A stretch of 64,000 nucleotides of DNA, from assembly GCA_964563535.1 (NCBI GenBank), contig CAZLXP010000001.1:423-64422 (forward strand), given 5' to 3'. Each line of letters starts with the position of its first letter. Positions within the stretch are counted from its first letter, which is position 1. Shown here piece by piece: positions 20,589 through 54,425 of the stretch. The translations under genes and the position numbers were made by a program. The notes under the pieces were generated by a model that ran no database searches, had not been told where the DNA came from, and worked only from the letters and a program-made list of their open reading frames with translations. The stretch comes from an uncultured bacterium. GTDB taxonomy: Bacteria > RBG-13-66-14 > B26-G2 > WVWN01.

Positions 20589-20704
20589 TTTTGCATCGCG
20601 GCCCTGAACCTGCTATATTTTATATATATACCGAAATTCGTGAATTAAATCACAAATTACCGAAATTAACTATACGATTTCAATTAACCGAGAGGAGAGG
20701 CCCT
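20589..20704 (+). promoter_or_regulatory. Conserved AT-rich promoter/operator region of the NHL gene family (copy 1). It contains a near-palindrome, GTGAATTAAATCAC, at 20640-20653.
   Basis: About 115 bp are near-identical to 37932-38049, which lies upstream of the paralogue at 38050. The sequence is ...cctgctatattttatatatataccgaaattcGTGAATTAAATCAC... followed by a GAGGAG RBS and the ATG. Confidence 0.6.
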
Positions 20705-21676: not shown

Positions 21677-21747
21677 CGTGGGTGGCGCCGGGGAGAACCC
21701 TGCACCGCTCCGCTTTTTACGGCCGCGTAGGCCGTAGAGGAGGAACC

Positions 21748-30084: not shown

Positions 30085-30918
30085 GTGGAAAACCTACCGT
30101 TAACGTTAAAGGAATATTTTAAAACCAAGGCGGTTAAAGGCATAACTATACTAAATGACGGCGCAGGGGAAACGTTCCCTCTATCCGGTGTTATTACCTA
30201 CGGCGCTATATTATTCGCCGACCTTCCGGGTTTTTCTAAACGGTTAGCCGAATACCCGGAACCCGGATACGGTTTATTCCTAGCTAACTTATTTTTCGCT
30301 TGGTTTAAAGGGGAACACGTTTATAAATTCGGCGGGTTATTAGATAAGTACATCGGGGATGAAATTATGATGGTTTTCCCTGCCGATACTTGCGACGGAT
30401 TACCCCTAAAAGCGGCTTTGTCTGCGGCGCGACGTTTTATTGATTATGACGTTTGGGATTTTAGGCCTCGCGTAGGCGTAGCGGTTGGGGATTTCGTAAT
30501 CGGTATAGTAGGACCTTTGGAAAAGGATTATGACGATAATTTTCGCTTGACCGATATAACAGCAGTCGGGAATACCGTTAATATAGCCGCTAGGTGCGTA
30601 CAAACGTTGGGGAACAATAAAACGGTTCGAGTCGCGACTTCTGATATCGAGTTAGTCCGAACCGTTTTCCCTTCACGGCCGAGTAGCAATGGAGGACACA
30701 TAAGAAGGGACGTTTGGAATATAGATGGGCCTAAAGAGGTAGAAGCGAAAAATGTTGGTTGCATTACGGTCATAGATATCGAAAACCCTTCCATTTGGGG
30801 CCCATTGATGGGATTTTCTAACGGCAAGGCCAAGGACCGGGAAACTGAATTACACGAACAATATACCCAAGGGATTAATTACGCTTTAGATAAAGGGACC
30901 GTCGTTAACGATAAATAA
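30085..30918 (+). CDS. Stand-alone class III nucleotidyl cyclase (adenylate/guanylate-cyclase catalytic-domain family), 277 aa.
   Basis: Cyclase motifs: ILFADLPGFSK, GDEIMMVF, VGVAVGDFVIGIVGP, TAVGNTVNIAARC. It has no sensor or TM domains. It sits 50 bp after the RM gene stop. Confidence 0.7.
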   Translation: MENLPLTLKEYFKTKAVKGITILNDGAGETFPLSGVITYGAILFADLPGFSKRLAEYPEPGYGLFLANLFFAWFKGEHVYKFGGLLDKYIGDEIMMVFPADTCDGLPLKAALSAARRFIDYDVWDFRPRVGVAVGDFVIGIVGPLEKDYDDNFRLTDITAVGNTVNIAARCVQTLGNNKTVRVATSDIELVRTVFPSRPSSNGGHIRRDVWNIDGPKEVEAKNVGCITVIDIENPSIWGPLMGFSNGKAKDRETELHEQYTQGINYALDKGTVVNDK

Positions 30919-32041: not shown

Positions 32042-32707
32042 ATGTTCTATGAATTAATACACTTTAAAATTAGCCCTATATTACTATTAACTCTGGGCTT
32101 ATCTTCCGAGTTTTTAGGCACCTTTTTAATTGCCGTGGACGCCGTCGCAATAAAAGAGTTCCTTTTAAAATTCCGATCCGATGTTTTTTATGAAAAACGC
32201 AGGGCCGATTTAGCGATTACTAAGTTTATTAATAGGTCTATTGCTTTTATTGTTTTCGGAACCGTTTTCGCCATAGTAACTACCGCGATTGGTTTAGATC
32301 TAGTACTTGCCTTGTTGCTCGCCCCATTAGGTTTTATTATACACCGTTTAATATCACGCATTCTTGGCCGGTTTTATTCACTAGTCCGTGTTCATCCGCC
32401 TAAATTGCGGGGGGGATGTATCTTAAAACCCTTATCGATTTTTATATGGCTATTATGGTTTATAGGCCTTTTGCTAACGTTTACCATATATATAGGTTTC
32501 GACATTGGTTTTGTTGTTGTGGTGTATGGGCTTAGCGAAAAATATTTAAAGCCTTTGGTGATAAAATTTTTCGATTATTTCAGCGAAAAGTGCATTAAGA
32601 AAGGCGAATCGTGGTTTCTTAAGTCATATATCATTACGGGGATTCTATTAATATTATTTGGGTTCTTATATCAAATTACGGGCACTATTCTAATTGCTTT
32701 ATATTAA
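32042..32707 (+). CDS. Polytopic membrane protein (about 5-6 TM helices), low GC, 221 aa.
   Basis: Hydrophobic helices ILLLTLGLSSEFLGTFLIAV, IAFIVFGTVFAIVTTAIGLDLVLALLLAPLGFII, IFIWLLWFIGLLLTFTIYIGFDIGFVVVVYG, IITGILLILFGFLYQITGTILIALY. No soluble domain recognised. Confidence 0.5.
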   Translation: MFYELIHFKISPILLLTLGLSSEFLGTFLIAVDAVAIKEFLLKFRSDVFYEKRRADLAITKFINRSIAFIVFGTVFAIVTTAIGLDLVLALLLAPLGFIIHRLISRILGRFYSLVRVHPPKLRGGCILKPLSIFIWLLWFIGLLLTFTIYIGFDIGFVVVVYGLSEKYLKPLVIKFFDYFSEKCIKKGESWFLKSYIITGILLILFGFLYQITGTILIALY

Positions 32708-32764
32708 TACCTGGTCCTATAGAAAATACGCGCTACGCGTGCCCCTCGGTCGTAACGCCGCGGC

Positions 32765-32855
32765 TGTCGCCGCGGCCCCCGATATCGACGCGCTGGTCTA
32801 TGAGCTGTACGGCCTGACCGATGAGGAGATAAGGATCGTGGAGGGGGCGAAGTAA
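32765..32855 (+). repeat. R3: short direct copy of the RM-gene 3' end (...DIDALVYELYGLTDEEIRIVEGAK plus stop).
   Basis: Alignment to 29950-30035. Confidence 0.8.
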
Positions 32856-32869
32856 AAGGAAACGGCTTT

Positions 32870-33364
32870 ATGTGGGATTGGTTACTAAAACACGTTCCCG
32901 AGTTAACCGCTTTGTCTACGGTTATTATGGCCGCGGCTACTACTATCGTAGCAGCCGCTACCGCGGTTTACGCGTTTTTAACTAATAAGTCATTAGCGCA
33001 GTCGAGGAAGGCCGTCACGGCTACCACCTTACCTTTACTCGCACTGCAGGAAGATACCTTTGGCGCTAATTACCCGCAATTAATATTCGTGAACCTGAAG
33101 AATAATGGATTTGGGCCGGCTTTAGAAATTCGACCTGAAATACAGGGGAATCCGGTCGGGTTTCATGTTTTAATTAAAAAACGTAGTTTGGGCCCGGGCG
33201 ATAGTTTAACGTTAGAAATAATAGGAGACCCCCATAAAGTAATCGATTATTCGGGAGTTTTGCGAGTTCGCGTATATTACCGGGCGATATTTGGCGTCGT
33301 ATACGAGTTATTGTTTGGTTTTTCCATTGATTCTCGCATCGTGGCTTTAATTCGCGTAGATTGA
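32870..33364 (+). CDS. Hypothetical protein with one N-terminal TM helix and a beta-rich C-terminal domain (164 aa).
   Basis: AAGGAAA RBS. N-terminal hydrophobic segment LTALSTVIMAAATTIVAAATAVYAFL. No motif recognised. Confidence 0.4.
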   Translation: MWDWLLKHVPELTALSTVIMAAATTIVAAATAVYAFLTNKSLAQSRKAVTATTLPLLALQEDTFGANYPQLIFVNLKNNGFGPALEIRPEIQGNPVGFHVLIKKRSLGPGDSLTLEIIGDPHKVIDYSGVLRVRVYYRAIFGVVYELLFGFSIDSRIVALIRVD

Positions 33365-36577: not shown

Positions 36578-37417
36578 CTACTTGAACAACGCCTTGACGC
36601 GGCCGAGGGAGGCGGGGGCAATGGCTGTATTGACCCATTTGAAATATTGGATGCGGTGGTTGTAGGTATCCGCGACGTAGACGCGGGAGCCGCCGGCGTT
36701 GAGACACAATCCGCACGGGCCGTTGAATTGGCCGTTACCGGAGCCGCTCGAGCCCCACTTACCCACGTAGGACCCACTCGCGGTGAAGTATTGGATGCGG
36801 TTGTTACCCGAATCGGCGACGTAGACGTTACCGTCGGGGGCGACGGCGACTCCGTACGGGTAACGGAATTGGCCGTCGCCCGTGCCGTACGAGCCCCACT
36901 GGCCGATGTAGGAACCGGCCGCGTTGAAGTATTGGATGCGGTTATTTTCGCGATCGGCGACGTATACGTTGCCGCCCGGGGCGACGGCGACGCCCCACGG
37001 GTAATAGAACTGGCCGTTGCCCGTGCCGGGCGTGCCCCGCTGGCCTACGTAGGAGCCGGTGGCGGTGAAGTATTGGACGCGTTGGTTACCCCAATCGGGG
37101 ACGTAGACGTTGCCCCTGAAGGCGACGGCGATGTCCTGTGGCCAATCGAACTGGCCGTTGCCCGTGCCGTACGAGCCCCACTGGCCGAGGTAGGACCCGG
37201 TGGCCGTAAAGTATTGGATGCGGTTGTTCCACCAATCGGCGACGTAGACGTCCCCGCACGGGGCGGCGACGACGCCCGTCGGGTATTGGAACTGGCCGTT
37301 GCCCGAGCCGCCCGAGCCCCACTGCGCTTCGTAGACCCAGGCGGCGAAGGCCGCGGCCGCCAGCGTTGCCGCCGCCGCCAGCGTTGCCGCCGCTGCGATA
37401 ATTAAAACCGTTTTCAT
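36578..37417 (-). CDS. Secreted NHL-repeat beta-propeller protein (copy D, 279 aa, 5 blades).
   Basis: MKTVLIIAAAATLAAAATLAAAAFAAWVYEAQWGSGGSGNGQ...; C-terminus ...WVNTAIAPASLGRVKALFK. Confidence 0.8.
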   Translation of the reverse strand: MKTVLIIAAAATLAAAATLAAAAFAAWVYEAQWGSGGSGNGQFQYPTGVVAAPCGDVYVADWWNNRIQYFTATGSYLGQWGSYGTGNGQFDWPQDIAVAFRGNVYVPDWGNQRVQYFTATGSYVGQRGTPGTGNGQFYYPWGVAVAPGGNVYVADRENNRIQYFNAAGSYIGQWGSYGTGDGQFRYPYGVAVAPDGNVYVADSGNNRIQYFTASGSYVGKWGSSGSGNGQFNGPCGLCLNAGGSRVYVADTYNHRIQYFKWVNTAIAPASLGRVKALFK

Positions 37418-38049: not shown

Positions 38050-39009
38050 ATGAGAAACGTTCTTTTGATGGCGCTGGCGACGGCGCTCGTTGCCGCGCCC
38101 GCCTTCGCCGACTGGGTCTACGAGGGCAAGTGGGGCTCGAGCGGCTCGGGTAACGGCCAGTTTAATCAGCCGGCCGGCGTCGACGTCGCCCCCTCGAGCG
38201 ACAACATCTACGTAGCCGACCAGTATAACCACCGCATCCAATACTTCACCGCGAGTGGGTCCTACCTGGGCCAGTGGGGCTCGAGCGGCTCGGGTAACGG
38301 CCAGTTCAATCGCCCGTACGACGTAACCGTCGCCCCTGGCGGCGACGTCTACGTCGCTGACTTCTACAACCACCGCATCCAATACTTCACCTCGACCGGC
38401 TCCTACCTCGGCAAGTGGGGCTCGAACGGCTCGGGTAACGGCCTGTTCAATTACCCGATGGGCGTCACCGTCGCCCCCGCGAGCGGTAACGTCTACGTTA
38501 ATGATAGCGGCAACGGCCGCGTACAATATTTCACCGCCATCGGCTCCTACCTCGGCCAGTGGGGTAGTTCCTTATTAACGGAATGTGGCATCGCCGTCGT
38601 CCCCGCTAACGGTAACGTCTATATCGCGGATTTCAGGAACGACCGCATCCGGTACTTTACCTATAGCGGCTCCGTCCTCGGCTCGTGGGGCTCTACCGGC
38701 TCCGGGAACGGCCAGTTCGGCGGCCCGGATGACGTCGACGTCGCCCCCGGGAGCGGCGACGCATACGTCAGCGATTGGGGTAACGCCCGCATCCAATACT
38801 TCACCTCGACCGGCTCCTACCTCGGCAAGTGGGGCTCGTTCGGCTCGGGCAACGGCCAGTTCAACCGCCCATGCGGAGTATGTTTCAACGTCGGCGGCTC
38901 GCGCTTCTACGTCACCGATTTCTACAACCACCGCATCCAATATTTCAAGTGGGAAAATACGGCCATTACCCCTGCCTCTCTCGGCCGCGTGAAAGCGATT
39001 TTTAAGTAA
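38050..39009 (+). CDS. Secreted NHL-repeat beta-propeller protein (copy E; closest paralogue of copy A).
   Basis: MRNVLLMALATALVAAPAFADWVYEGKWGS...; six blades; C-terminus ...WENTAITPASLGRVKAIFK. Confidence 0.8.
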   Translation: MRNVLLMALATALVAAPAFADWVYEGKWGSSGSGNGQFNQPAGVDVAPSSDNIYVADQYNHRIQYFTASGSYLGQWGSSGSGNGQFNRPYDVTVAPGGDVYVADFYNHRIQYFTSTGSYLGKWGSNGSGNGLFNYPMGVTVAPASGNVYVNDSGNGRVQYFTAIGSYLGQWGSSLLTECGIAVVPANGNVYIADFRNDRIRYFTYSGSVLGSWGSTGSGNGQFGGPDDVDVAPGSGDAYVSDWGNARIQYFTSTGSYLGKWGSFGSGNGQFNRPCGVCFNVGGSRFYVTDFYNHRIQYFKWENTAITPASLGRVKAIFK

Positions 39010-40029: not shown

Positions 40030-40443
40030 ATAATTGACTTGCCCCCATTCTTAGTACCACAGTTAAAGTTATTCTCTTAGCTTATTTATCCCATCATTAG
40101 CACTAATTCAAGGAACCGGCATTGTCCCGACCTCCTGATTATATTACCCTGGTTCGGGTCCAGCTACTAACATAGTAACACACTAACCGGACCAGTTTTT
40201 GGGGGTCAGGTCAGAGTTCCTGAACCGCGAGCTGCTGGATACGTTCTTGGAGGCAAAAGTCTTGACGGATCGTTGGCGGCGGGAGTATAATGAGGTGCGT
40301 CCCCACAGCGCGTCGAACTACCGGCCGCCGGCGCCGGAGGCGTTCGAACCGCTGCTTGCCGGTTCCTTGAATTAGCGCTGATCCGGGGACTAATAGGCTA
40401 CGCGAGTAACTTTAACTGTGGTACTAAGAATGGGGGCAAGTCA
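40030..40443 (+). mobile_element. Internally deleted IS3-family insertion-sequence remnant: IRL (TGACTTGCCCCCATTCTTAGTACCACAG), about 160 bp of leader, the last ~58 codons of OrfB (40203-40377), and IRR (CTGTGGTACTAAGAATGGGGGCAAGTCA). Further end-copies lie at 40520-40548 and, inverted with leader, at 41425-41556.
   Basis: The 40203-40377 frame translates to ...FLNRELLDTFLEAKVLTDRWRREYNEVRPHSASNYRPPAPEAFEP, the conserved C-terminus of IS3 transposase OrfB (rve/DDE). The terminal 28-bp inverted repeats begin TGA and end TCA. Confidence 0.6.
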
Positions 40444-41925: not shown

Positions 41926-43467
41926 TCACGTCAATTGCTCAAGGAAATCGCGGGCTACAATAGCGGCGTTTTGAGCTGCAATTTCTTGAAACCGGTCGTT
42001 TTTTTGCTCGTCGCCGAAATCGCTGATACCACGGATAACCAAGAACCGAGCATTACAACGGGAGCACACGGTAGCGACCCCCGCAGCTTCTATCTCTATG
42101 ACTTCGATCTTACCGTGAAGGGAATGTCTGATAGTCCGGAACTTACCAGGGTCCCGGAGGAGCTTTTCGCCGCTCGCGAATGTCGCGAGTCGTGGAACGA
42201 ATTCTTGATCAACCAATGCCTCGTCGACGTTAGGGGGAATAACGATACCCGCGGCTTTCCGAGCAATCACTAGGCGTCCTTTTACGGCCGCCGGGTTAGC
42301 CAAGTACGAGATTACGTCTTGTTTTGTCGCGTGCGGGGTCCGAAATGATTCTGGGCGAGGTACTTCGCGTGGACCGTCCGGCCCCGTCACTAACGCAGCA
42401 CCTTCGTAAGCTATAACACGTTCCGAAAACACAACTTCTCCCAAAAGGCACTTGCCACGCATCCCAGCTGCAATCCCAACCATGACTACGATCTTCGGTT
42501 TAAACTTGGTTAATAACATAGCCGTTTCCGCTGCCGCATCCACATTACCCGCGTTGCCGAAACAAGCGATTGCTACCCTCAGACTTTTTTTCGCCGCATT
42601 AACGGTAAATAAGGCTTTAAACCAGTAGTTGGTGCCAGATTCGGTTTTTTCTGGTTTCTGGTCAATCGCATCGAATACCAATAGAACCGCGCCAAGTTCG
42701 ACAGGTAATGCAGTCAATACTAACGCGTCGACCGGAGCGTTTCGCGAAGCCGCATCGAACTCGTCACCAAGCGCATCGACGGCGCCCTGGACGACGTCCG
42801 CGATACTCATTACGGGAGCCTCTAAAGAGAGACTAAGAATACGGTCGATAATACTTTGCGCTGAGTAAGGGAAGAAACGTTGGGGTTGTTCGAGCATAGC
42901 TTTGTGGAGTCCGACCGCCCCGTCGCCGTCGTTGTTATAAGAACCGATCTGGATATCCATCGGAAGAATGACTGCTCCGCCACGCCGTTGCAACTTCCAA
43001 GCCCTATCGGCGACGCCTTTCCCACCACCAATCGCGACCATCGCATCGGCACGCCGGGTCTGTTCGTCCCCTATATTCCCGCCTGTGTGCACGTTATCCG
43101 GGATTATAACTAACTCTGCCATACCATGCGCACATAAGCGACCGAGAAGCGCCCGATGCTCGTCGCTCATTTTGTGTAGGCGCGCTTTATTCGACGTCAC
43201 GACCACAACGCGGCCGGTGACCGGCTTAGACGAGTCGGAAGCAAACGCTTCGGCTACCCGTAAGATGTTCCAGTCGAATATAAGGGGTACGCCTTCCCGG
43301 TTCACGGGTTCGTTACCGCCGTAAACTACGATTCCGGCGCCTTGTTCAAGCAATGTTCTGGTTATCTTGCTGACGAAGTCGTGCGCTACAGCAAGTTTAC
43401 CCGGCTCAACCGAAAAAGACGCACTTCCGGTTAGTAAAACCGACTTGTCTTTTAGCCTACCTACCAT
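41926..43467 (-). CDS. Two-domain effector: N-terminal SLOG (Smf/DprA-LOG-like) predicted nucleotide-sensor domain fused to a C-terminal PNP/UDP-family nucleosidase (MTA/SAH-nucleosidase-like).
   Basis: N-terminal Rossmann-like Gly-rich motifs VLLTGSASFS, GIVVYGGNEP, AMVAIGGGKGVADRAW. C-terminal PNP_UDP_1 motifs DALVLTALPVELGAV, IVVMVGIAAGM, EIEAAGVATVCSRCNARFLVIRGISDFGDE. Confidence 0.6.
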   Translation of the reverse strand: MVGRLKDKSVLLTGSASFSVEPGKLAVAHDFVSKITRTLLEQGAGIVVYGGNEPVNREGVPLIFDWNILRVAEAFASDSSKPVTGRVVVVTSNKARLHKMSDEHRALLGRLCAHGMAELVIIPDNVHTGGNIGDEQTRRADAMVAIGGGKGVADRAWKLQRRGGAVILPMDIQIGSYNNDGDGAVGLHKAMLEQPQRFFPYSAQSIIDRILSLSLEAPVMSIADVVQGAVDALGDEFDAASRNAPVDALVLTALPVELGAVLLVFDAIDQKPEKTESGTNYWFKALFTVNAAKKSLRVAIACFGNAGNVDAAAETAMLLTKFKPKIVVMVGIAAGMRGKCLLGEVVFSERVIAYEGAALVTGPDGPREVPRPESFRTPHATKQDVISYLANPAAVKGRLVIARKAAGIVIPPNVDEALVDQEFVPRLATFASGEKLLRDPGKFRTIRHSLHGKIEVIEIEAAGVATVCSRCNARFLVIRGISDFGDEQKNDRFQEIAAQNAAIVARDFLEQLT

Positions 43468-43482
43468 CGAGAACGCCTTCCT

Positions 43483-44415
43483 TTATTCGCCAAAAATCAA
43501 CTTTAAGTCGTCGATTGACGATCGGTCTTCTGCAGCTTGAAGCCGCCTCGCTAAACGGTCCAATGAACCCGAGACTCGCACGCGTGTAGCACTACCCGTA
43601 ACCCCGAGATAATCATCTACATGTAAGGACTGCCCTGTCGTGTCAAGTATAGGGGTTCGTACGCGTCCTGCCGCATGCTGTACTAAATGTTGCAACATAT
43701 TCTCGTAAGTGACCCGTCCCTTGTAATCTCGAAAAGCGTCTATTGCCAAAGACTCGATATGATAACCGGTTAAGCGGCTGGTCGCGGGTAGCTGCTCTTG
43801 CGCGGCCTTGAAAAGTTTGATAACCGGGACGACCTTTCTACCTAACGATTGGTTGACACTCGTTAATTTCGTCGCGAACTCTTGGGGCCTAACAACGTTG
43901 CTCCACCCCGAGCCGTCGGGCTTAGCGATTCGGACGCCGGTTGGCGTACGCAACGCCGGGAGTATTTGGACTTCGGTTCTGTCGGCGTATACCACGGTGA
44001 TTGCCAAAGCGCCAACCCGAACCCTAACGCCGAGGCCCGCGAGACGGTCTGCTATCCGCTTTTCGAAGTAAGCTAGAACCTGTTGTGGGCTCGCATTAAC
44101 AAGCGATGAATCGTTAACGACTGTTAAGATATCGATGTCGCTTAAGCCGTCGACGTAGGTGTGCTTTCTCACCGAACCACCAAATAAAAGGGTCGTTTCC
44201 CCTTCAATGTCTTTTTCGATTGCCTGTTTAAGAGTGTCAACGTGCCTTTGAATCGCGGCGACATCTCGCCGATTAAGGTCGCCGAGTACATCTTGGAGAT
44301 AAGCATTCGCGTCGGCATCGTAACTCGAAGCCGCCGCAGCATCGTCGACAGACTTGTCGACGCGAGGCCCTCCCACAGCGTAATTAAACCATCCCCTACC
44401 CCCGCGGCCAGTCAT
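43483..44415 (-). CDS. SMODS/CD-NTase-like minimal nucleotidyltransferase (predicted cyclic oligonucleotide/second-messenger synthase).
   Basis: hG[GS]...DxD motif: TLLFGGSVRKHTYVDGLSDIDILTVV. Likely start is MTGRGGRG at 44415 after an AGGAGGGG RBS; the ORF track frame extends to 44538. The gene is 15 bp upstream of, and co-oriented with, the SLOG-PNP gene. Confidence 0.6.
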   Translation of the reverse strand: MTGRGGRGWFNYAVGGPRVDKSVDDAAAASSYDADANAYLQDVLGDLNRRDVAAIQRHVDTLKQAIEKDIEGETTLLFGGSVRKHTYVDGLSDIDILTVVNDSSLVNASPQQVLAYFEKRIADRLAGLGVRVRVGALAITVVYADRTEVQILPALRTPTGVRIAKPDGSGWSNVVRPQEFATKLTSVNQSLGRKVVPVIKLFKAAQEQLPATSRLTGYHIESLAIDAFRDYKGRVTYENMLQHLVQHAAGRVRTPILDTTGQSLHVDDYLGVTGSATRVRVSGSLDRLARRLQAAEDRSSIDDLKLIFGE

Positions 44416-44713
44416 CTTTACCCCTCCTAGGAGACGCGGCACGGGCCGCCGCAGACTCGGCAACGCGTATCGCGTTGTACGCGAACGGAAAAGCCCCGCA
44501 AAACGCTTCCCGGTCACCGTCTGTTGCGTATCGCCCAAGTGCGGTTTGTAGCCGTCTTAAATAGCGCAAGTTACTACGCCAAACCTTGAGGCATACGTTC
44601 GCATCGTCGATAGTAACGCAACCGGCCACAACCGCGAACTCGTTCGGCGACCCTATACCGATAGGATCGAAACTCATACGGAGCCAAGAGAGGCCGTCGA
44701 AAATATCCGCACC

Positions 44714-45469
44714 TCATAGGAAGTAGGAAGTAACGGCCGCCGGGGTGATTGCACCGAACACGTGGATAGGAAGAAAGAAACCCGCATCATTTAACGCTCG
44801 ACGGATGTTACAGATGGATTTACACCGCTCCACTGCTGAACGTCCAAGCTCGCGTTCTGTTACTCCCAAAACATCGAAGTTACCCAACCGTATGTCGGTA
44901 CCACGGAAAGGTTCAAGGAATTCCCCTGACCCTGTCGGTTTAAGTAAAAAATCAAAAGCAGCGTCGGGGATACAAGAGAAATCTTCGAGTGCGGCGTCTA
45001 CCTGTTTTTCCAACGCATCGTACGTGTCGAAGCTAACTACTATAGTATTCGTTTTCGAAGCTCGGGTATTCGCCTCGCGAAGGTAAGAGCGGTAGTGGTT
45101 TCTTGTCCATGGGGCGGCGGCCGGTAGGGGATAGTAGAAATCGACGGACACGGTAGCCGGTGCCGTCTCGTAGACGCCGCTATCGAGGAGGACGAGATCA
45201 GCTAATTCGTTAAAAGGAACGTCAATGTTCCCGTACTTAAGGTCGAATGCACTTAGTAAGCAAGCGGTGCTAATATCCAGCCTTAGCGCGTCCATAACCA
45301 AACGAATATTAGGGAAACCCCTACTAGAGAATGACGGTACCAGAACCGGCGTAGCCACGCCAAAACGCGCGATACATCGCACTTGAGCGAGATCGTCAAT
45401 CGACACGGCACTCTTTCCTGTCCTGGCAAGAAAAGCACTTCCCACAGGGCGTCTCGTTCCTCCGCTCAC
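44714..45469 (-). CDS. tRNA-guanine-transglycosylase-superfamily protein, short DpdA-like form (candidate 7-deazaguanine DNA transglycosylase).
   Basis: VATPVLVPSFSSRGFPN resembles the TGT motif TPaFmPVgT.g. VLLDSGVYE resembles TGT vDSGGFQ. About 250 aa is compatible with a minimal TIM barrel. The true start is probably downstream of 45396, since the 5' end overlaps the queC-like gene. Confidence 0.4.
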   Translation of the reverse strand: MSGGTRRPVGSAFLARTGKSAVSIDDLAQVRCIARFGVATPVLVPSFSSRGFPNIRLVMDALRLDISTACLLSAFDLKYGNIDVPFNELADLVLLDSGVYETAPATVSVDFYYPLPAAAPWTRNHYRSYLREANTRASKTNTIVVSFDTYDALEKQVDAALEDFSCIPDAAFDFLLKPTGSGEFLEPFRGTDIRLGNFDVLGVTERELGRSAVERCKSICNIRRALNDAGFFLPIHVFGAITPAAVTSYFL

Positions 45470-45998
45470 AACTATAAGTCAACGACAGTGGTACACGATG
45501 CCGACGGGCGTATTTGACGATAGTCCCCTTCGTCATCGAAAGGAAGGGCGCGGAGAAGGTGACGGTGCCTCCTGCGTACCCGTCTAGTAGACGTTGGACA
45601 TCCTCTACGAACGCTGGTGTAGTGTCGTAATAAGGCGACGAAACATGAAGCCCGGTTGCAATGACAAGGGGCCTTTCACGCGAAAGAGCGGCCGCTATAA
45701 GCACTAACAACGCGTTACGGCTAAAATACTCGCCGTCCGCTTGTGGCAGGCGGACTCCTAGCCGAACGCGGCGCAGAGCACAGCTGTAATGGTCGGCGAT
45801 TGCCTGGGCAGCTTCCCACTCACTCCTCCGAGCGGCCTGACCATAGTCTACGAATAAACCATCAACGGAGTCGCCACGTTGGCGGACAAAGGTCGAGAGC
45901 GTTGTGGCAGAGTCAATACCGCCACTAAGCAATACTACGACCTTCGCGACATACTTCGGTGGTTTTCGTCCAAAACGGCGCGGTGGAGTTATTAGCAT
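45396..45998 (-). CDS. queC: QueC-like 7-cyano-7-deazaguanine (preQ0) synthase, PP-loop ATPase.
   Basis: PP-loop SGGxDS in VVLLSGGIDSATTLS. C-terminal Cys cluster (SCERRNETPCGKCFSCQDR) resembles the QueC zinc site. Confidence 0.65.
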   Translation of the reverse strand: MLITPPRRFGRKPPKYVAKVVVLLSGGIDSATTLSTFVRQRGDSVDGLFVDYGQAARRSEWEAAQAIADHYSCALRRVRLGVRLPQADGEYFSRNALLVLIAAALSRERPLVIATGLHVSSPYYDTTPAFVEDVQRLLDGYAGGTVTFSAPFLSMTKGTIVKYARRHRVPLSLTYSCERRNETPCGKCFSCQDRKECRVD

Positions 45999-46486: not shown

Positions 46487-49273
46487 TCATTTGCTCCCTA
46501 ATATCCGCGCCAACCCCGCGGGGTCCCTGCTTATTACGAACTTCCAACGGCCAAACCCGCCGTGATGGTTAATGGCACGTTCCCAGCGTCTAGCGCCCGT
46601 TTCCTTCGCGCGGTCCTGTTCGGTCTCGAAGCCTTTTACCTCTAGGACGACGTTTATCTCCTCGTCGCCGTGGCGATATTGGATTAAGAAATCAGGCTTA
46701 TAATTATGGGTTACACCCTGGTACTCGTACGGGATGTAGAAGTCGAGCCCTTCGTTCTTGACGTACGAAGTGACCTCCGGCATACGTTCGAGTTTGAAGG
46801 CAGCGGAACGTTCCCACTTCACGTTATCCAGGACGACGTGGCTTACGTGACTCTTGGCGGTTTCAGCACAGGGCCGGACGGTCCGGAACAGGACCTCCGT
46901 CGTAGAGCCGCGCGGCCGGAACCGCTCGATCCGCGGCAATAGCGGCGTCTCGCCAGCCTCCTCATCCGGCTCGATGGCTGCGCATAGCCGGTCTATTATA
47001 TCCTGCGAGTAACGCCGTAACGCGAGCTCCTCAAGCGGCACGTCGCCTTTAACACGGACCTTCTTGGCAACGTATTCCTCCACGATGCGGAGGACTTGCG
47101 GAAATAAAAACCGGCGTGCTCCCTCGCTTAAGCTTCCGGTAATGGTCGCCGCGATCTCGAATAACGTCCGCTGGAGCCGTTGCGCCTCGTGGAATTCATC
47201 GCGGTCGTGGTCCGCCGACGTTCCCGGGCTCATTAAACCCGCAGAGCCTTCGCGCGTACCGGCGACGCCGGTTACGATTACCTCGGTCGGTTCCCGGCTC
47301 GGCTCGACGACGAGCTCGGGCAGCGCGTCGACGTCGGCCTTAACGTATCGGCGAACGTCGTAAATGTAACCCTCGACGCGCGGGAACTCGATCGCCAAGT
47401 CCGCTCTCTCGGGCAGCGCGCGTACCAACGTCGAGGGGGGCGGCGGTTTGACGTCGCCGCGTCTCCCGGCGACGGGGATAACCTGGAACGGGATACCGTA
47501 TACGTCCACGTACTCGACCGCCTCCGGGTCGCCGACTTCGTCGTAATTAGTACGGCGGAGCCCGCGCCCCACGACCTGCTCGCATAGAAGCTGTGAAGCG
47601 AAGGCGCGAATGCCTAGGATATGGGTAACGTTGTGGGCGTCCCAACCTTCGTTCAACATCCCCACCGATACGACGCACCGGACCTGTTCGCCGGGCTCTC
47701 CTACCTTGCCGACCGTCGAGACTACTTTCCGGAGGCGCTCCGCACGACCCTCTCGCGTCTCGCCCTCGACTACTTTTTCTGCCTCGTCGAGGAGCCGGGT
47801 ATCGATGCGGACCGTGGGTTGGTAGCCGTCCTCGTCCGCTAGTTCAGCGAGGATCTTACCAGACTTAATGTGTTCGGCGATTGCCTCCGACAGCTTCGTA
47901 TTGTCGCAAACAACGATGAGGGCGGGGGGCACCGGGAATTCGTCTTGGCGCCACTTCTCGAACAGCTCCTTCCACGACGACGCCAGCGTCGCGAGCGCGC
48001 CCTCGACCTCGCGCAGGACCGCCTCCGGTTTGGCGCCCCGGGCCCGGGTGCGCCGTTCGGAGGCGTGCAGCCGTTCCATTATCCAGGGCCAGATGTGGAA
48101 GTAGCGCGGGATGGGGTCGCCGGAGTCGTCGGCCACGGGGATGCGGGGGATTTTTACCAGGCCGGATTCGATAGCGTCAACCAAACCGAAGTCCGATACC
48201 ACCCACGGGAAAGGCCTCCCCTCGCGCCGGTCACCTTTGAGGTAGTACGGCGTCGCCGAGAAGTCTAAACAGTGGTTGATCCCGCGTTCGGCGTTTATCG
48301 CGTCAAGACCGCCCACCCACACCGTCGCCGTGCGCTCCTCCTGCTCGACCTCTTTGCGCTCCGCCGCGGTCATCTGGAGGAGCTTCTCTTGTTTGTCCTC
48401 CGGCCGCGGCGCTGGCCGGTAGGCGTGGTGGGCTTCGTCGTTAACGACGAGGATATTCTCTTTTCGGCCGAGGCCCTTGAGGACGCGGTTCACAAACGCC
48501 CGGTCGCTCTCCCGGCCGCGCTTCACGACGCCGCGCTTGTCGGTATCGTCGTCGCGGAGGAAGAGATGCCAGTTCGTCACGAGGTAGCGGCCTTTGCCCA
48601 ACACCTCCAGGTACGAACGGGGGACTAAGTCGAAATGCTCGTAGTAGTTGCTGTCGTCGGAGGGGAGGAGAACTTGAAGCCGCTCCTTGATCGTGAGGTT
48701 GGGGCAGACGACGAGGACGGCGTCGGAGAAGCGGCGGTCCTGGCGGTTGAAGACCTTGTTCAACACGGACCAGGCGACGAGCATCGCCATTACGACGGTC
48801 TTGCCGGAGCCCGTAGCCATCTTGCAGGCGTAGCGCGTAAGCGCGCGGTATCCTTCCTCGAGCGGCACGTCCGGCGGGATGCCGAGCGTCCTGCCCCGGT
48901 CCCCGGCGACCTCTACGAGCCAGATGACCGTCTCCGCGGCCTCGCGCTGGCAGAAGAACAGGCGGCGCTCGCGTTCCGTCGGCGGCCGGTTCCAATATTC
49001 CAACAGCTCCCGCGTTACGCGCGTGACGCCCGGGTAGCCGGCGGCGCGCCACTCGCCCACGAGCGTGCGGACGTGGTTGGCGAGGTCGAGGCCGACGAAC
49101 TCCTCCGCGGCCAAAGCGCCCGCCCGAGCGGCCGTTCGGGGGTTGTAGTAGTAGCCGGCGGGCCGCCGGCCCTTGACCAACTCCGGGCCGCCCTCGCCGA
49201 AGACGTAGTGTTGCCTCGGCTCCTCGAACGGGTCGTTGATAATCGGCTTATCGACGACGTTTCTCATTTGCAA
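46487..49273 (-). CDS. res: Type III restriction-enzyme Res-like subunit (SF2 DEAH helicase + C-terminal nuclease region), 928 aa.
   Basis: Walker A in CKMATGSGKTVVMAMLVAW; DEAH box in VVNDEAHHAY; helicase C motifs (VGMLNEGWDAHNVTHILGIRAF). It lies in the same operon direction as a beta-class methyltransferase upstream. Confidence 0.6.
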   Translation of the reverse strand: MQMRNVVDKPIINDPFEEPRQHYVFGEGGPELVKGRRPAGYYYNPRTAARAGALAAEEFVGLDLANHVRTLVGEWRAAGYPGVTRVTRELLEYWNRPPTERERRLFFCQREAAETVIWLVEVAGDRGRTLGIPPDVPLEEGYRALTRYACKMATGSGKTVVMAMLVAWSVLNKVFNRQDRRFSDAVLVVCPNLTIKERLQVLLPSDDSNYYEHFDLVPRSYLEVLGKGRYLVTNWHLFLRDDDTDKRGVVKRGRESDRAFVNRVLKGLGRKENILVVNDEAHHAYRPAPRPEDKQEKLLQMTAAERKEVEQEERTATVWVGGLDAINAERGINHCLDFSATPYYLKGDRREGRPFPWVVSDFGLVDAIESGLVKIPRIPVADDSGDPIPRYFHIWPWIMERLHASERRTRARGAKPEAVLREVEGALATLASSWKELFEKWRQDEFPVPPALIVVCDNTKLSEAIAEHIKSGKILAELADEDGYQPTVRIDTRLLDEAEKVVEGETREGRAERLRKVVSTVGKVGEPGEQVRCVVSVGMLNEGWDAHNVTHILGIRAFASQLLCEQVVGRGLRRTNYDEVGDPEAVEYVDVYGIPFQVIPVAGRRGDVKPPPPSTLVRALPERADLAIEFPRVEGYIYDVRRYVKADVDALPELVVEPSREPTEVIVTGVAGTREGSAGLMSPGTSADHDRDEFHEAQRLQRTLFEIAATITGSLSEGARRFLFPQVLRIVEEYVAKKVRVKGDVPLEELALRRYSQDIIDRLCAAIEPDEEAGETPLLPRIERFRPRGSTTEVLFRTVRPCAETAKSHVSHVVLDNVKWERSAAFKLERMPEVTSYVKNEGLDFYIPYEYQGVTHNYKPDFLIQYRHGDEEINVVLEVKGFETEQDRAKETGARRWERAINHHGGFGRWKFVISRDPAGLARILGSK

Positions 49274-49321: not shown

Positions 49322-49360
49322 GTGAGCCCATTATGAGCCCATTGAGCCCATTATGAGCCC
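49322..49360. repeat. Short tandem repeat (GAGCCCATT[AT] x about 3.5) in the res upstream region.
   Basis: gtgagcccattatgagcccattgagcccattatgagccc. It lies 50-90 nt 5' of the res start on the minus strand and overlaps the last 3 codons of the AlbA_2 gene. Confidence 0.7.
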
Positions 49361-50745
49361 TTTAAGGAATATTTAGTCCCGCGGCCGGTCGTACCTTCTT
49401 TCTTTAAAACGCCCTTTGCGACGAGGTCTTCCAAATCCCTTGTAGCCGTTGCTTTAGCTACACCGTACTTCGTTTGGTAGGTTTTATTGTCGATACTGCC
49501 TTCGGTTTTGACGAACGCCACGCATTTAATCTGTCGTTCTTTAAGCCCCAGAGATTTTAAGTGGTCGGCCGTGAACGGGTCTTGTGAAAAGAGGGCATTA
49601 AAACCGCCGTTGTCCTCGGAAAAAAGAGGTTCCGGGAGGCCAACCGAACGACACGCTTCAATCATCCTGGTCGTCCCGGTGCCCCACCGTTCAATAAAAC
49701 CCGCGAAATGGAACGCCTGCGCGAGCAAAGGGTTGCGGGGCATAGAAGGGTGACCGGGACGCCGTAGGTCATCGATTGTAATACCGGCAGGCAAGAAGCC
49801 GGGGTTCCAAATCTCCAAGCGGTCTTCGTAAAGGCGGATTTGTATATCGCCAGCGGCGGCGTAATCTCGGTGAGCCAGGGCGTTCAAAACCGCTTCTCTT
49901 AATGCTGGGAGCGGGTATTCCCAAACTTCGTCACGGCGAAATGCTTCCGCGGATAATTCAGACGTGTTTACTGCGCTTACGTTTTTAAGGTTTGCGTGGA
50001 ACCATTCGGTTACCCGTTCGATTTGCACCCAGAGGTTTCCCGTTATCGTCTCGTCGTTTTGTACGCCTCCCGCGACGAACCGGCCGATATGGACCGTCGC
50101 ACCAGGGATATAAATTTGGGGGTTATCGGTAAAGAGAAGGACTCCTGCGTGGTTCAACTGCCCATCTCTAATTAGCGTAAGGTTCCCCAGAATTGTATCG
50201 GTTTCCACCACCGCCGCGGCCGGCATACGGTCCCAGGCGTACCTTCGAAACGAGTCTATGGCAACGGCACTTATACGGTCCGGGTTAATCCCAGACGGTA
50301 AGCTATCCCACGTCGGGCCGTAAAGAGAAAGTAATTTCGCGGCGATTTCTTCGGTCGTCATCAACCGCGTCGTGTTACCTACCCTTTTATAATACCTCCC
50401 CTGGTAGGAGATTAAAACTGAAGACGCCGCGACCTCGATTTTGAATACTACCGAGTCCCCATAAAATAGGCGTTCTACACTCGGATTTAAACCCAAAGCG
50501 CTTATCTGGTCCATCATAGCCGAGAAATCGCGGTCCGATAAGGTAATACCCTTAATAACACCTCGGACGTCAACCCCTAAATACAAAGCGCCGCCGCGGG
50601 TGTTCGCGAAAGCCGCGATCGTTTCTAATCCCGCATCGTTCCACGATTCCTTGAATTCGGTAGTCTCGTCTTCGGTTAACCCGATATTAACCATTGATTC
50701 CCTTACCAATCCGTACCCTCTCGCGTACCGAAGCAGAAGTGCCAC
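49351..50745 (-). CDS. AlbA_2/Schlafen-like DNA-binding domain protein with a C-terminal HATPase_c_4-like and winged-helix region (COG2865-type, often labelled RecG-like transcriptional regulator).
   Basis: N-terminal TEDETTEFKESWNDAGLETIAAFANTRGGALYLGVD is the AlbA_2 signature. It is 464 aa and inserted between mod and res. Confidence 0.6.
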   Translation of the reverse strand: MALLLRYARGYGLVRESMVNIGLTEDETTEFKESWNDAGLETIAAFANTRGGALYLGVDVRGVIKGITLSDRDFSAMMDQISALGLNPSVERLFYGDSVVFKIEVAASSVLISYQGRYYKRVGNTTRLMTTEEIAAKLLSLYGPTWDSLPSGINPDRISAVAIDSFRRYAWDRMPAAAVVETDTILGNLTLIRDGQLNHAGVLLFTDNPQIYIPGATVHIGRFVAGGVQNDETITGNLWVQIERVTEWFHANLKNVSAVNTSELSAEAFRRDEVWEYPLPALREAVLNALAHRDYAAAGDIQIRLYEDRLEIWNPGFLPAGITIDDLRRPGHPSMPRNPLLAQAFHFAGFIERWGTGTTRMIEACRSVGLPEPLFSEDNGGFNALFSQDPFTADHLKSLGLKERQIKCVAFVKTEGSIDNKTYQTKYGVAKATATRDLEDLVAKGVLKKEGTTGRGTKYSLKGS

Positions 50746-50814: not shown

Positions 50815-51714
50815 TTAGTCTCTAAGCCACGTTTCAAATACGGCGGAAAGAGTTTCGACGTGCTCATCAACCATCTGTTTCGCTTCGTCTTTCTCGCCGG
50901 ATTTTAATCGGTCCAATATTTCGTAAAACCATATCTTAGAACGCGCTATTTGAGCAGCGAAATACCAAGCCCCTTGGTTAAAAGATTCGGGCAAAACCCC
51001 GTATTCCAAGGATTTGGTGACGATATTTCTTCTTGCTTCCGCATCTTTTTTAGGTTTAGGCACGCTCGATATTTCGCTTATACGTCCGATCCAAATATCC
51101 ACCGGTTGAAGGAGTTCTCTATTAAGGACGTTTTCGCACTGACCGACTTCTTCGAATAGCCCGTAATAACTGGCAACATCTCTTAAAAAAAACGAAGCGA
51201 TTTTCTCGCCGACGCCGTTCACACCAATAATCCGCTGAAACGCGTCTTTTATTCTACGTTGTTCTATCTGCGTTTTCGCATAACCTATTATTGTCTCTTT
51301 GCCCTCTGGGCCGAAGCGTTCGATTACCGAATCTTGGATCGTTTTATATTCACCTTTCTTAGTTACGTACTTCGTATTCTTTGGGGCGAGCGGATTGGCT
51401 TTAACATTCGCCCGCGGTTCTTCAGTTCCTGGTTCCTGGAAACGCGCCAACTTTTTAATATATTCCCGCCAGATCGCATCCGTCGTTAAATCCGGCGCCC
51501 TTAATACCGTTTCCGCCGCAGCGTAAGCGTAGTCACGAGCCGCCCCTTGTCGTTCGTACGCGTAACCCCATAAGAAAATGGCTAGAGCCTTCCTCTTATC
51601 TTGGAGCGGTTCATCTTTGTTAGTAACGTAACGTCCCCACGTAGGAAACAGGTACCTCGCCCGGTATAACCGCCCTACATCTGCGAAAAACTCGAATAAA
51701 TCCCTTTCGCTCAT
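50815..51714 (-). CDS. Hypothetical protein with a helix-hairpin-helix-like motif (299 aa).
   Basis: IIGVNGVGEKIASFFLRDV resembles an HhH (L..I.GVG...A) element. The rest is unassigned. Confidence 0.35.
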   Translation of the reverse strand: MSERDLFEFFADVGRLYRARYLFPTWGRYVTNKDEPLQDKRKALAIFLWGYAYERQGAARDYAYAAAETVLRAPDLTTDAIWREYIKKLARFQEPGTEEPRANVKANPLAPKNTKYVTKKGEYKTIQDSVIERFGPEGKETIIGYAKTQIEQRRIKDAFQRIIGVNGVGEKIASFFLRDVASYYGLFEEVGQCENVLNRELLQPVDIWIGRISEISSVPKPKKDAEARRNIVTKSLEYGVLPESFNQGAWYFAAQIARSKIWFYEILDRLKSGEKDEAKQMVDEHVETLSAVFETWLRD

Positions 51715-51812: not shown

Positions 51813-54425
51813 CTACTTCGTGCCGCGCATCCGGGCGAAGGCCTCCTCGTCGATGACGCCGCGCAGCGCCCGGCTGAGCTTGGCCCACGGGTTCTCGCCG
51901 CCCGGGAAGAACGCCTGGCAGACGCAGAAGGTCCGGCCGTCGTAGTCGTGGTCCAGGAACCAGGCGGCGACGTCCCGGCCGCGCGAGGACTTGACCTCGC
52001 CGGTCGTCGGGTCGTAGGTATCGACGCCGCGGAGCTCGGCGACCCAGGTCTTGCCGTGGCTGGCGTGCACGGCCACGTCGGGCTGGCCGAAGACGGTGAA
52101 GAGCTGGCTGCCGCGCGTCGTCTTCAACAGGTCGCCGACGAGGACGTCCGGGCAGACGTTCGCGAGCTCGAGGCGGAGGCCCGGTCGCGGCCGGCTCTCG
52201 ACGAAGGTCGTCACCTCGGCCTCGAAGCCGAAGCCCGCGAAGACGAGCAGGCCGTAGCCGCCGGCCGCCGCCTCGCGAATCGCCTCCTCCACCTGCTTGA
52301 ACGTCACCGGGCCGTAGCGCGGGCCGAAGGAGAACGCGACGAGCTGTTTGTCGCCGTTCACCGCCACCTCGGCCCCGGCGTGCAGGAAGCCCCCCGACTT
52401 CACCGCCCTTATCCCCGGAACGTCGAGCTTCTTGCCGCCGGGGAAGGTGACGCCGTCGCGGCGCAGCAGCTCGACGAGGGTGGCGACGTGGTCGCCGGCG
52501 GGGTCGGCGACGCGGCCTTCACCGCGGCCGCGCCGGCTCAGGTCGTCGTCGCGCTCACCCGGCGCCAGCGCCCCCTCGGGCACTTCCGCGCCGGCGGGAA
52601 CGGGGATGCCCTCGACGGTGAAGGGGCCGGCGACGCGGACGACGTTCCTCTCAACGTCGGGTTGGTCGTAGAGGGTCTCCTGCGGCGCGGCTCGAGCGAT
52701 CTCGTCGTCGATGGCCTGCTGGCGTTTGCGCCGGCCGGCCCACCACTTCTTATGGAGTTCTTTGGCCTCCGCGGGCCAATCCGCCGCGGCCTCGCGTGGG
52801 ACCTCCCACTCCTCCCACTTTTGCCCGAGGGCTTTATTCAACTCGAGGCGGAGGGGCTCGAGATCGAGCTGGTGCTCCTCGTAGAGCTCGTCTATCCGGG
52901 GGTTCTGCGCGATGGACTTGAGCGTGACGTGGGGTACGGCCTTATAGACGAAGCCGCCGCGCGGGCCCTGGTCCGCGTTCGCGAGCTTGTAGTAGTCGTA
53001 GCGGGCGGTGAGGAGGCGCTGGCGCGCGAGGTTGAGGGCGACGTGGGAGGTGTCGCAGGTTATCCAGCGGCGGCCCCACTTCTCGGCGCACCAGGCCGTG
53101 GTGCCGGAGCCGCACGTCGGGTCGAGGACCAAGTCGCCGGGGTCCGTGGTCATCAGGATGCAGCGTTCGATAACTTTAGGAGCTGTCTCTACGACGTACA
53201 ATTTCTGGGCTACGTAGGTACTTACGACTGTATCGGCCCAGTAATTTGTAAAACTTACTAGCGGGAAATCGCTCAAATAACTTTTATAAGCAAGCGTATT
53301 ACCGGCGACGTAGAGCCTATTAGCAAGGCCTAACCGGTCTAGGCCTTCTTTTGTAGTTTTCCAATGGGCTTTCGTAGGGCAATTGAATTCCATTTTTAAA
53401 AAACGATAGGGCTTAGAGCCTTCCGTTGTCGCGCCAGATGAAAAAAGGCTATCCGCGTTAAAACGTTTCAACTCGGTCTCTTTATCATCAGACTTATCTT
53501 CTTTCGTTAATCTCCTAGCGATCCCCGGCGCTTCTTCTACCCAAGTATAAGCGCTCTCAACGGTCCTAACAGCTTTAACCGAAAACAATTCGCGATATTT
53601 GAGAGAACTCATATCCCTAGAATACCAAAGAAGGAAATCAAAAACCGTATCGAGGGTCCGAGACCCTTTCCCGGTAGTTGTTATAAACGATATAATGCAA
53701 ACGAAGTTGGCTCTTCCGAAAACCTCGTCCATTAGCTCCTTAACGTAATGGATATTTTCGTCGCTAATCTGCACGAAGATGGAGCCGGATTCGGCGAGGA
53801 GGTCGCGGGCGAGGAGGAGGCGGTCGCGGAGGTAAGTGAGGTAGGAGTGGATGCCGAGGGTCCAGGTGTCGCGGTAGGCCTTGATCTGCTCGGGCTCGCG
53901 CGTGAGCGAGGCGTCGTCGCCGTCGCGGACGTCGCGCGAGGCCAGCGACGGCTGGAAGTTGGAGTTGTAGCCGACGCCGTAGGGCGGGTCGACGTAGATC
54001 ATCTGGACCTTGCCGGCTATCAGCTCGCGCTCCAACAGCGAGTTCATCACCACCAGCGAGTCGCCCAGGACGAGGCGGTTGGCCCAGTCGACGTCGTGCT
54101 GGTAGAACTTTACGGCGTCGCCCAGCGCCAGCTCCTCCGCGGCGAAGAGGTCGCGCTGGACGTCCTCGCGCGCCGCCGCCCGGAGTATCGCCTTCGAGCT
54201 GACGCGCTCGTGGATGTGCAGCGGGACCGTGTCCACCGCGAACGAGAGGTGCTCGGCCTTCCCGGCCCACACGAGCTGGGGGTCGAGGTGCGGGTCGTAC
54301 GCGTACGTCTTGCGCTCCGGCGCGTACGCGTCGTAGCCGGCCAGGCCGGCCTCCGGGTTGTTGGGCCGCTTCTCGTCGTGGCGGTAGTCGTCTATTTCGA
54401 CGTCTTTCTTCTTGCGGCGGGGCAT
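51813..54425 (-). CDS. mod: Beta-class N6-adenine/N4-cytosine DNA methyltransferase, Type III Mod-like, with an extended C-terminal domain (870 aa).
   Basis: Motif IV IYVDPPYGVGYN precedes motif I LVLDPTCGSGTTAWCA, which is beta-class order as in Mod proteins. It is upstream of, and co-oriented with, res. Confidence 0.65.
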   Translation of the reverse strand: MPRRKKKDVEIDDYRHDEKRPNNPEAGLAGYDAYAPERKTYAYDPHLDPQLVWAGKAEHLSFAVDTVPLHIHERVSSKAILRAAAREDVQRDLFAAEELALGDAVKFYQHDVDWANRLVLGDSLVVMNSLLERELIAGKVQMIYVDPPYGVGYNSNFQPSLASRDVRDGDDASLTREPEQIKAYRDTWTLGIHSYLTYLRDRLLLARDLLAESGSIFVQISDENIHYVKELMDEVFGRANFVCIISFITTTGKGSRTLDTVFDFLLWYSRDMSSLKYRELFSVKAVRTVESAYTWVEEAPGIARRLTKEDKSDDKETELKRFNADSLFSSGATTEGSKPYRFLKMEFNCPTKAHWKTTKEGLDRLGLANRLYVAGNTLAYKSYLSDFPLVSFTNYWADTVVSTYVAQKLYVVETAPKVIERCILMTTDPGDLVLDPTCGSGTTAWCAEKWGRRWITCDTSHVALNLARQRLLTARYDYYKLANADQGPRGGFVYKAVPHVTLKSIAQNPRIDELYEEHQLDLEPLRLELNKALGQKWEEWEVPREAAADWPAEAKELHKKWWAGRRKRQQAIDDEIARAAPQETLYDQPDVERNVVRVAGPFTVEGIPVPAGAEVPEGALAPGERDDDLSRRGRGEGRVADPAGDHVATLVELLRRDGVTFPGGKKLDVPGIRAVKSGGFLHAGAEVAVNGDKQLVAFSFGPRYGPVTFKQVEEAIREAAAGGYGLLVFAGFGFEAEVTTFVESRPRPGLRLELANVCPDVLVGDLLKTTRGSQLFTVFGQPDVAVHASHGKTWVAELRGVDTYDPTTGEVKSSRGRDVAAWFLDHDYDGRTFCVCQAFFPGGENPWAKLSRALRGVIDEEAFARMRGTK

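Follow-up and report, generated by a model that had tools for sequence, protein, structure and literature searches.

A predicted type IV CBASS operon with a Cap17-like effector and an in-frame stop codon in the Cap10 gene of an uncultured bacterium

The stretch of DNA analysed here (64,000 nucleotides, hereafter the window) derives from an uncultured bacterium (GTDB lineage Bacteria; RBG-13-66-14; B26-G2; WVWN01) and corresponds to positions 423 to 64,422 of contig CAZLXP010000001.1 in the GenBank assembly GCA_964563535.1. Positions 41926-45998 of the window, on the minus strand, almost certainly comprise a single four-gene operon of a type IV cyclic oligonucleotide-based antiphage signalling system (CBASS), with genes for the predicted proteins Cap9, Cap10, CdnD and a Cap17-like effector. 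The Cap10 gene is interrupted by one in-frame TGA codon and, when these features are read together, the locus is very probably a type IV CBASS with a Cap17-like effector which has most likely been recently inactivated or crippled by a nonsense mutation in Cap10. It is an ordinary member of a known family, as published work already covers type IV CBASS, its chemistry of deazaguanylation and the ATP nucleosidase Cap17.

The operon is made up of consecutive minus-strand open reading frames (ORFs) at 45396-45998 (200 aa), 44714-45469 (251 aa) followed by 44396-44677 (93 aa), 43483-44538 (351 aa) and 41926-43467 (513 aa). The ends of the Cap9, Cap10, CdnD and effector genes either overlap or lie 15 nt apart, and the genes follow the order expected of a type IV system. 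All four translated products match CBASS component models of PADLOC (E 1e-60 to 1e-154), and the only strong sequence matches of CdnD, Cap10 and Cap9 in the PDB are to the type IV CBASS crystal structures 9NTN and 9NTO. Related loci were identified by scanning the GTDB species-representative genomes with a CdnD alignment, which yielded 218 loci, 80 of which were fetched and form the basis of all locus counts given here. The type IV assignment follows from the presence of Cap9 and Cap10 directly upstream of the cyclase gene, in the same orientation and in an order which recurs in 74 of the 80 related loci. The original prediction, made from the sequence of the window alone, had described a CBASS-like two-gene module consisting of a SMODS nucleotidyltransferase and a SLOG-PNP fusion protein. 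Both ORFs are indeed found and are co-directional, with the nucleotidyltransferase gene (43483-44415) lying 15 nt upstream of the 513-aa ORF (41926-43467), and the CBASS call is borne out by matches to both PADLOC and NCBIfam CBASS models. The pair, however, represents the distal half of a four-gene operon rather than a complete module. A Cap11/OGG gene could not be found between or after the four genes, and the 2.2 kb 3′ of the effector gene contain only short ORFs without family matches and an rve_3 transposase remnant. About two-thirds of type IV systems lack Cap11/OGG (Wassarman et al., bioRxiv 10.1101/2025.04.06.647259). A scan for promoters and terminators recovered sites no more numerous than those in shuffled sequence.

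The first gene of the operon (45396-45998, minus strand) codes for a QueC-like ATP-dependent enzyme of 200 aa, identified as Cap9 by its matches to the PADLOC QueC model (PDLC00911; e-value: 1.2e-67) and to Pfam QueC (e-value: 4.9e-25). Its best PDB match is 9nto_B (e-value: 1.7e-31; residues 18-195), the SxGxDS pyrophosphate loop takes the form SGGIDS at residues 25-30, and the protein retains residues equivalent to R86, Y115 and D117. Against the NCBIfam QueC equivalog the protein scores 76 bits, below the cutoff of 150, and is thus no housekeeping QueC.

The third gene (43483-44415, minus strand) encodes a CdnD-type CD-NTase of 310 aa, a predicted CBASS oligonucleotide cyclase (PADLOC PDLC00790; e-value: 5.8e-113), which scores 259 bits against the NCBIfam model CBASS_cyclase_b ('CBASS oligonucleotide cyclase'; cutoff: 200) and whose sole PDB match is the type IV CdnD (9ntn_G/9nto; e-value: 2.2e-65). 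The SMODS nucleotidyltransferase with a GS...DID signature that had been proposed for this gene is supported by Pfam SMODS (e-value: 1.4e-6) and by the residues G79-G80-S81 and D93-I94-D95, which together with D145 are invariant or nearly so in a 30-sequence family alignment; the acidic residues D93, D95 and D145 are thus conserved, and D93 and D95 align with D94 and D96 of the crystallised CdnD. Mechanical ORF calling starts the gene at TTG 44538 (351 aa), and initiation at ATG 44415 gives the 310-aa product. The latter is the credible start, since AGGAGG, a strong Shine-Dalgarno sequence, precedes it and a 310-aa protein of identical sequence has been recorded (P0001); furthermore, the PADLOC cyclase profile aligns only from residue 42 of the longer ORF. 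A glycine-rich N-terminal tail is common to members of the CdnD family, and in the window it reads MTGRGGRGW (44389-44415, minus strand), the expected site of deazaguanylation. This is an atypical variant of the motif M(G/S)G(G/S)GG with which type IV CD-NTases start and which is required for defence (bioRxiv 10.1101/2025.04.06.647259). Residue 2 is glycine in 93, serine in 13 and threonine in three of 115 full-length homologues, and an arginine at position 4 occurs in four of the 115. A threonine at position 2 permits removal of the initiator methionine.

The second gene (44396-45406, minus strand) encodes Cap10, a TGT-like transglycosylase-family protein, and is interrupted by one in-frame TGA (44714-44716, minus strand), at codon 231 when counted from GTG 45406. 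This GTG is the probable start and overlaps the stop codon of Cap9; the mechanical ORF starts at GTG 45469. The 251-aa and 93-aa ORFs share a reading frame and this TGA is all that separates them, which rules out a frameshift between them, and they match consecutive parts of the PADLOC TGT model (PDLC00913), namely profile positions 4-232 (e-value: 2.3e-60) and 257-315 (e-value: 4.2e-5). The sequence obtained by reading through the stop matches the crystallised Cap10 (9ntn_A; e-value: 2.9e-36; residues 38-318), and equivalents of D73, S74, D122, K154, H226 and D248 are all encoded. Directly after the TGA follows GADIFDGLSWLR, a motif containing the catalytic aspartate, which lies at 44696-44698 within GADIFD, six codons past the stop, and is equivalent to D248 of the Rhizobiales Cap10. 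The stop codon therefore divides H215 from D237 (numbered from GTG 45406), and the gene is present but interrupted. The 93-aa ORF, which starts at ATG 44677 and overlaps the start of CdnD by 20 nt (44396-44677, minus strand), is the C-terminal remainder of Cap10; the small upstream ORF that had been thought a possible additional member of the unit is part of this tail and not a separate gene. As the next ATG (44677) falls after the aspartate motif, neither of the two fragments includes the nucleophile.

The TGA is a genuine feature of the sampled population. Separate Logan assemblies of the sequencing runs ERR4334734 and ERR4334735 each yielded a contig that matches the window without a difference (100% identity over 1.3-1.6 kb) and includes the TGA. 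Gene callers likewise split the Cap10 gene at this codon on the contigs, and an artefact of assembly or genome binning was rejected as the source of the TGA. A search of JGI metagenome contigs for the Cap10 site with any third codon base gave no match. At the column of the stop, 70 homologues have cysteine (31), alanine (20), serine (17) or methionine (2), and the closest relative, a Heliobacteriaceae locus, has the cysteine codon TGT at this site, which indicates that a single base change suffices to explain the stop. An alternative genetic code was also discarded as a cause, since TGA terminates six of the 21 confident genes in the window and long ORFs are free of it. Conservation past the stop is normal for an intact gene, the ratio of C-terminal to N-terminal identity being 0.81 in comparison with 0.72 in the intact copy of the Heliobacteriaceae locus.

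The last gene (41926-43467, minus strand) encodes a Cap17-like effector of 513 aa, which matches the PADLOC model PDLC00759 ('PN-superfamily'; e-value: 3.5e-154) across residues 5-510. Its N-terminal TPALS/SLOG signal-sensor domain (residues ~5-232) aligns with positions 1-231 of the 232 in Pfam Cap17-like_N (PF18178, formerly TPALS, of the SLOG family; e-value: 9.1e-46), and its C-terminal PNP-family nucleosidase domain (residues ~250-510) with PNP_UDP_1 (PF01048; e-value: 3.5e-20). This agrees with the fusion of a SLOG-type sensor and a PNP/MTA-nucleosidase put forward in the original prediction, as does the absence of any LOG/Lysine_decarbox match in Pfam and NCBIfam: the PGGxGTxxE motif is lacking, the glycine loop reads IGGGKGVADRA, and the N-terminus is a TPALS domain and not a LOG cytokinin-riboside hydrolase. 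Models for housekeeping 5′-methylthioadenosine/S-adenosylhomocysteine (MTA/SAH) nucleosidases reach 72 bits against an NCBIfam cutoff of 169. The suggestion of a distinct CBASS variant with a new effector arm did not hold, as the protein shares 39% amino acid identity over 389 aa, spanning both domains, with Cap17 of Escherichia coli KTE188 (BLASTP; E 1e-87), and TPALS-PNP effectors occur in five other type IV genomes. PNP effectors are reportedly already catalogued in the CBASS classification of Millman and co-workers from 2020, and a PADLOC model for them is available.

The comparison with Cap17 made use of approximately the first 400 residues of that protein, taken from Table S1 of bioRxiv 10.1101/2023.01.24.525353. 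The two proteins share the PF18178 + PF01048 architecture and are of similar length (513 aa in the window and 505 aa in E. coli). Since the primer for the D472A mutant of Cap17 encodes ISAFGD, the wild-type motif is ISDFGD, and residues 481-486 of the window effector are identical to this context. The predicted catalytic aspartate is accordingly placed at D483 (42019-42021), which aligns, together with E460 (42088-42090), with the catalytic aspartate and glutamate of MTA/SAH nucleosidases. Cap17 of E. coli KTE188, a TPALS-PNP protein from a type III CBASS, cleaves ATP and dATP to adenine along with (deoxy)ribose-5′-triphosphate, and its D472A substitution abolishes defence (Rousset et al., bioRxiv 10.1101/2023.01.24.525353). 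It is partnered there by the type III HORMA/TRIP13 accessory proteins, whereas the window effector accompanies a type IV CdnD with Cap9 and Cap10, and because of this pairing the nucleotide which activates it may differ from that of Cap17. The domain of the immune PNP clade and the logic of ATP depletion are also shared with DtcC of Detocs, PNP-fused Avs proteins and partners of prokaryotic Argonautes, which, however, make use of other sensor and activation modules, that of Detocs being phosphotransfer rather than a cyclic nucleotide.

Homology, residue conservation, operon structure and the stop codon are read from the window itself, while the steps of the mechanism proposed for the system are taken from the work of Wassarman et al. 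and Rousset et al. In the characterised type IV system, Cap9 attaches 7-amido-7-deazaguanine (NDG) to the N-terminus of the CD-NTase, the NDG-modified tail is bound by Cap10 in its TGT-like active site, and defence is lost upon deletion of Cap9 or Cap10 or mutation of Cap10 D73 or D248 (Wassarman et al., bioRxiv 10.1101/2025.04.06.647259). In an intact copy of the window operon, Cap9 would adenylate 7-carboxy-7-deazaguanine with ATP and couple it to the amine at the free N-terminus of CdnD, giving NDG; Cap10 would then hold the NDG-linked CdnD and presumably transfer it to some target, whereby activation would be licensed on infection. Activated CdnD would make a cyclic oligonucleotide, which the TPALS domain of the effector would bind, and the PNP domain would destroy ATP and dATP, thus aborting the infection. 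The closest characterised counterpart is the Rhizobiales type IV CBASS (Cap9-Cap10-CdnD-Cap11 and an effector; 9NTN, 9NTO), with which the window locus shares the three core proteins at full-length similarity, the gene order, the SxGxDS loop of Cap9, the nucleobase-reading residues and His/Asp pair of Cap10, and D93/D95 and the Gly-rich tail of CdnD. It differs from that system in that it lacks Cap11/OGG, a TGA breaks its Cap10 ahead of the catalytic aspartate, its CdnD starts with MTGRGG in place of M(G/S)G(G/S)GG, and its effector is a Cap17-like TPALS-PNP protein.

The stop in Cap10 is best read as a genuine single-base nonsense mutation (TGT/TGC to TGA), by which the system has most likely been recently inactivated or at least crippled. 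Loss of defence is predicted because Cap10 is cut before its nucleophile and is essential in the studied system, and a loss of function of this CBASS copy appears somewhat the likelier outcome. Several points weigh against this interpretation. UGA is the leakiest of the stop codons, so that some full-length Cap10 may persist, and the absence of further decay past the stop would fit a very recent mutation and continued use equally well. The requirement for Cap10 has been demonstrated in a single Rhizobiales system. The threonine at position 2 of the CdnD tail is rare, and such a tail may or may not be accepted by Cap9. Finally, the two run accessions which support the TGA are adjacent and may stem from one sample, so that the contigs exclude an assembly artefact but do not demonstrate that the allele is fixed.

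A fully functional type IV CBASS, in which the Cap10 TGA is read through, is recoded (as selenocysteine, or by near-cognate tryptophan or cysteine insertion) or represents one allele beside an intact gene, is an unlikely but not negligible alternative. The replacement of a cysteine codon by a stop is the classic pattern of a selenocysteine/cysteine pair, the Cap9, CdnD and effector genes are intact, and the downstream part of Cap10 is undecayed and in frame to its normal end, which overlaps the CdnD start. The column of the stop, however, is not a conserved cysteine and is neither a redox nor a catalytic position. An 80-nt segment beginning just ahead of the UGA shows no advantage in folding over shuffled sequence (z -0.38), with no structure resembling a selenocysteine insertion sequence and the only nearby hairpin ~45 nt downstream, and neither a selenocysteine tRNA nor any other tRNA is found in the window; on these grounds selenocysteine insertion or another form of programmed recoding was rejected. 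The use of TGA as an ordinary terminator in the window and its presence in both run-specific assemblies likewise speak against a functional copy. Furthermore, Cap10 is disrupted in other related loci, by frameshifts (loci L003 and L081), insertions of ~0.6-1.4 kb (L043 and L074) and in-frame stops (L026 and L012), which amounts to ~6 of the 77 further loci in which Cap10 is matched, a count that may include assembly errors. The breakage of Cap10 in several of these loci means that its decay is nothing unusual.

There is a slim chance that the stop is more than decay. As a safety catch, low-level read-through of the UGA could keep Cap10 scarce in a toxic system; alternatively, defence with the Thr-2 CdnD might be independent of transfer by Cap10, in which case the truncated protein, retaining its CdnD-binding helix and NDG pocket and lacking the nucleophile, would serve as nothing more than a clamp. 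If either were true, the gene would be a natural separation-of-function allele relevant to the question of how type IV CBASS is activated.

Still less probable is an autonomous two-gene CBASS of a distinct SMODS + SLOG-PNP variant, whose upstream neighbours would either have nothing to do with it or be dispensable. The cyclase and effector genes are adjacent and intact, only a Cap10-independent mode could work while Cap10 is broken, and minimal type I CBASS with only a cyclase and an effector exist. The cyclase, however, is a member of the type IV CdnD clade, has a type IV CdnD as its sole PDB relative and displays the Gly-rich N-terminal tail; Cap9 and Cap10 precede it in nearly all of the relatives fetched; the system that has been studied keeps its cyclase inactive and fails to defend if Cap9 or Cap10 is missing; and the effector type has already been named and characterised as Cap17. 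A set of housekeeping queuosine biosynthesis genes (QueC, TGT) beside an MTA/SAH salvage nucleosidase, with no immune role, can practically be dismissed, since the weak similarity to QueC and MtnN-type nucleosidases falls far under the NCBIfam equivalog cutoffs (76 versus 150 bits and 72 versus 169 bits, respectively), no TGT family is matched at all, the top matches are to defence-specific models and structures, and the locus lies within a defence island in which an Avs-like NLR and restriction-modification genes of types IIG and III are also found.

Among the related loci, the genes downstream of CdnD encode OGG/Cap11 in 34 of the 80, 2TM effectors in ~27 and TPALS-domain effectors in 31. 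This frequency of TPALS effectors suggests that a signal recognised by TPALS is typical of the type IV CdnD clade. Fusion partners of the TPALS domain are PNP in five loci (L002, L004, L009, L012 and L065) and CHAT in four, with TIR or unassigned domains elsewhere; the combination of TPALS-PNP and type IV CBASS is thus a minority one, which recurs across phyla. The same four-gene layout as in the window is found in the Heliobacteriaceae locus (L002; metagenome-assembled genome contig CAZWAK010000026; CdnD identity: 66%; effector E 2e-150) and in Synechococcus sp. CS-1328 (L004; CdnD identity: 60%; effector E 2e-144). In contrast to the window copy, Cap10 is intact in both, with a cysteine codon (TGT) in the former and a serine codon (TCT) in the latter at the site of the stop. 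In nine further loci from Dehalococcoidia/Chloroflexota (L039, L046, L047, L059, L061, L066, L068, L069 and L072), CdnD is followed by a protein of ~275-285 aa which is nearly all TPALS/Cap17-like_N; only ~60 residues lie outside this domain, and a recognised effector domain is absent.

The operon is located in a stretch of lower GC content (0.51-0.55, compared with about 0.60-0.65 in the GC-rich parts of the window), which forms part of a defence island. Restriction-modification is represented there by a type IIG gene and by a BPTD_3080-family restriction endonuclease with a type III methylase, and the island further harbors an Avs1b-like NACHT protein and a Schlafen/AlbA_2 protein. The restriction endonuclease (NCBIfam; e-value: 4e-296) and type III methyltransferase (PADLOC; e-value: 3.6e-187) are encoded on the minus strand at 46487-49273 and 51813-54425, and between them lie genes for a 464-aa protein with Schlafen AlbA_2 and HATPase_c_4 domains (49351-50745) and for a 299-aa product without a family match (50815-51714). 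A protein of 2146 aa (55654-62094, minus strand) combines an N-terminal Cap4-type dsDNA endonuclease domain (Pfam; e-value: 1.3e-9) with a NACHT/AAA NTPase; it matches PADLOC Avs1b (e-value: 1.1e-37) over residues 261-713 only, and its ~1400 C-terminal residues have no recognised family. The 490-aa product of 62489-63961 (minus strand), which carries UvrD_C_2 helicase motifs, covers only positions 764-1209 of the 1221 in the PADLOC PDC-S68 profile (e-value: 1.7e-169), and this gene probably continues past the end of the window or is truncated.

At the other side of the operon, the type IIG restriction-modification gene (27156-30035) is directly followed by an ORF on the plus strand (30085-30918; 277 aa) whose product shows weak similarity to PycC (PADLOC; e-value: 1.8e-7) and to Guanylate_cyc (Pfam; e-value: 3.7e-4, under the gathering score), and which may be a second nucleotide-signalling defence gene; ORFs at 32042-33364 have no family matches. 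The low-GC island is flanked on both sides by members of a group of five paralogous NHL-repeat beta-propeller genes (Pfam NHL; e-values 1e-35 to 1e-43), at 20591-21355, 21682-22713 and 38050-39009 on the plus strand and at 23486-24457 and 36578-37417 on the minus strand; the long antisense ORFs over these five genes resemble repeat-driven artefacts. The region from 39.7 to 41.9 kb holds no recognisable genes besides the rve_3 remnant, a C-terminal fragment of an insertion sequence-type integrase core (40199-40375, plus strand; Pfam rve_3; e-value: 1.1e-11; profile positions 26-67 of 67) situated 1.5 kb downstream of the effector gene.

Models able to detect each component were already available, and the main use of these results is one of correction: the locus consists of four genes rather than two, and what looked like an additional ORF is a piece of one of them. 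The natural lesions that recur in Cap10 may point to a burden which the system places on its host.

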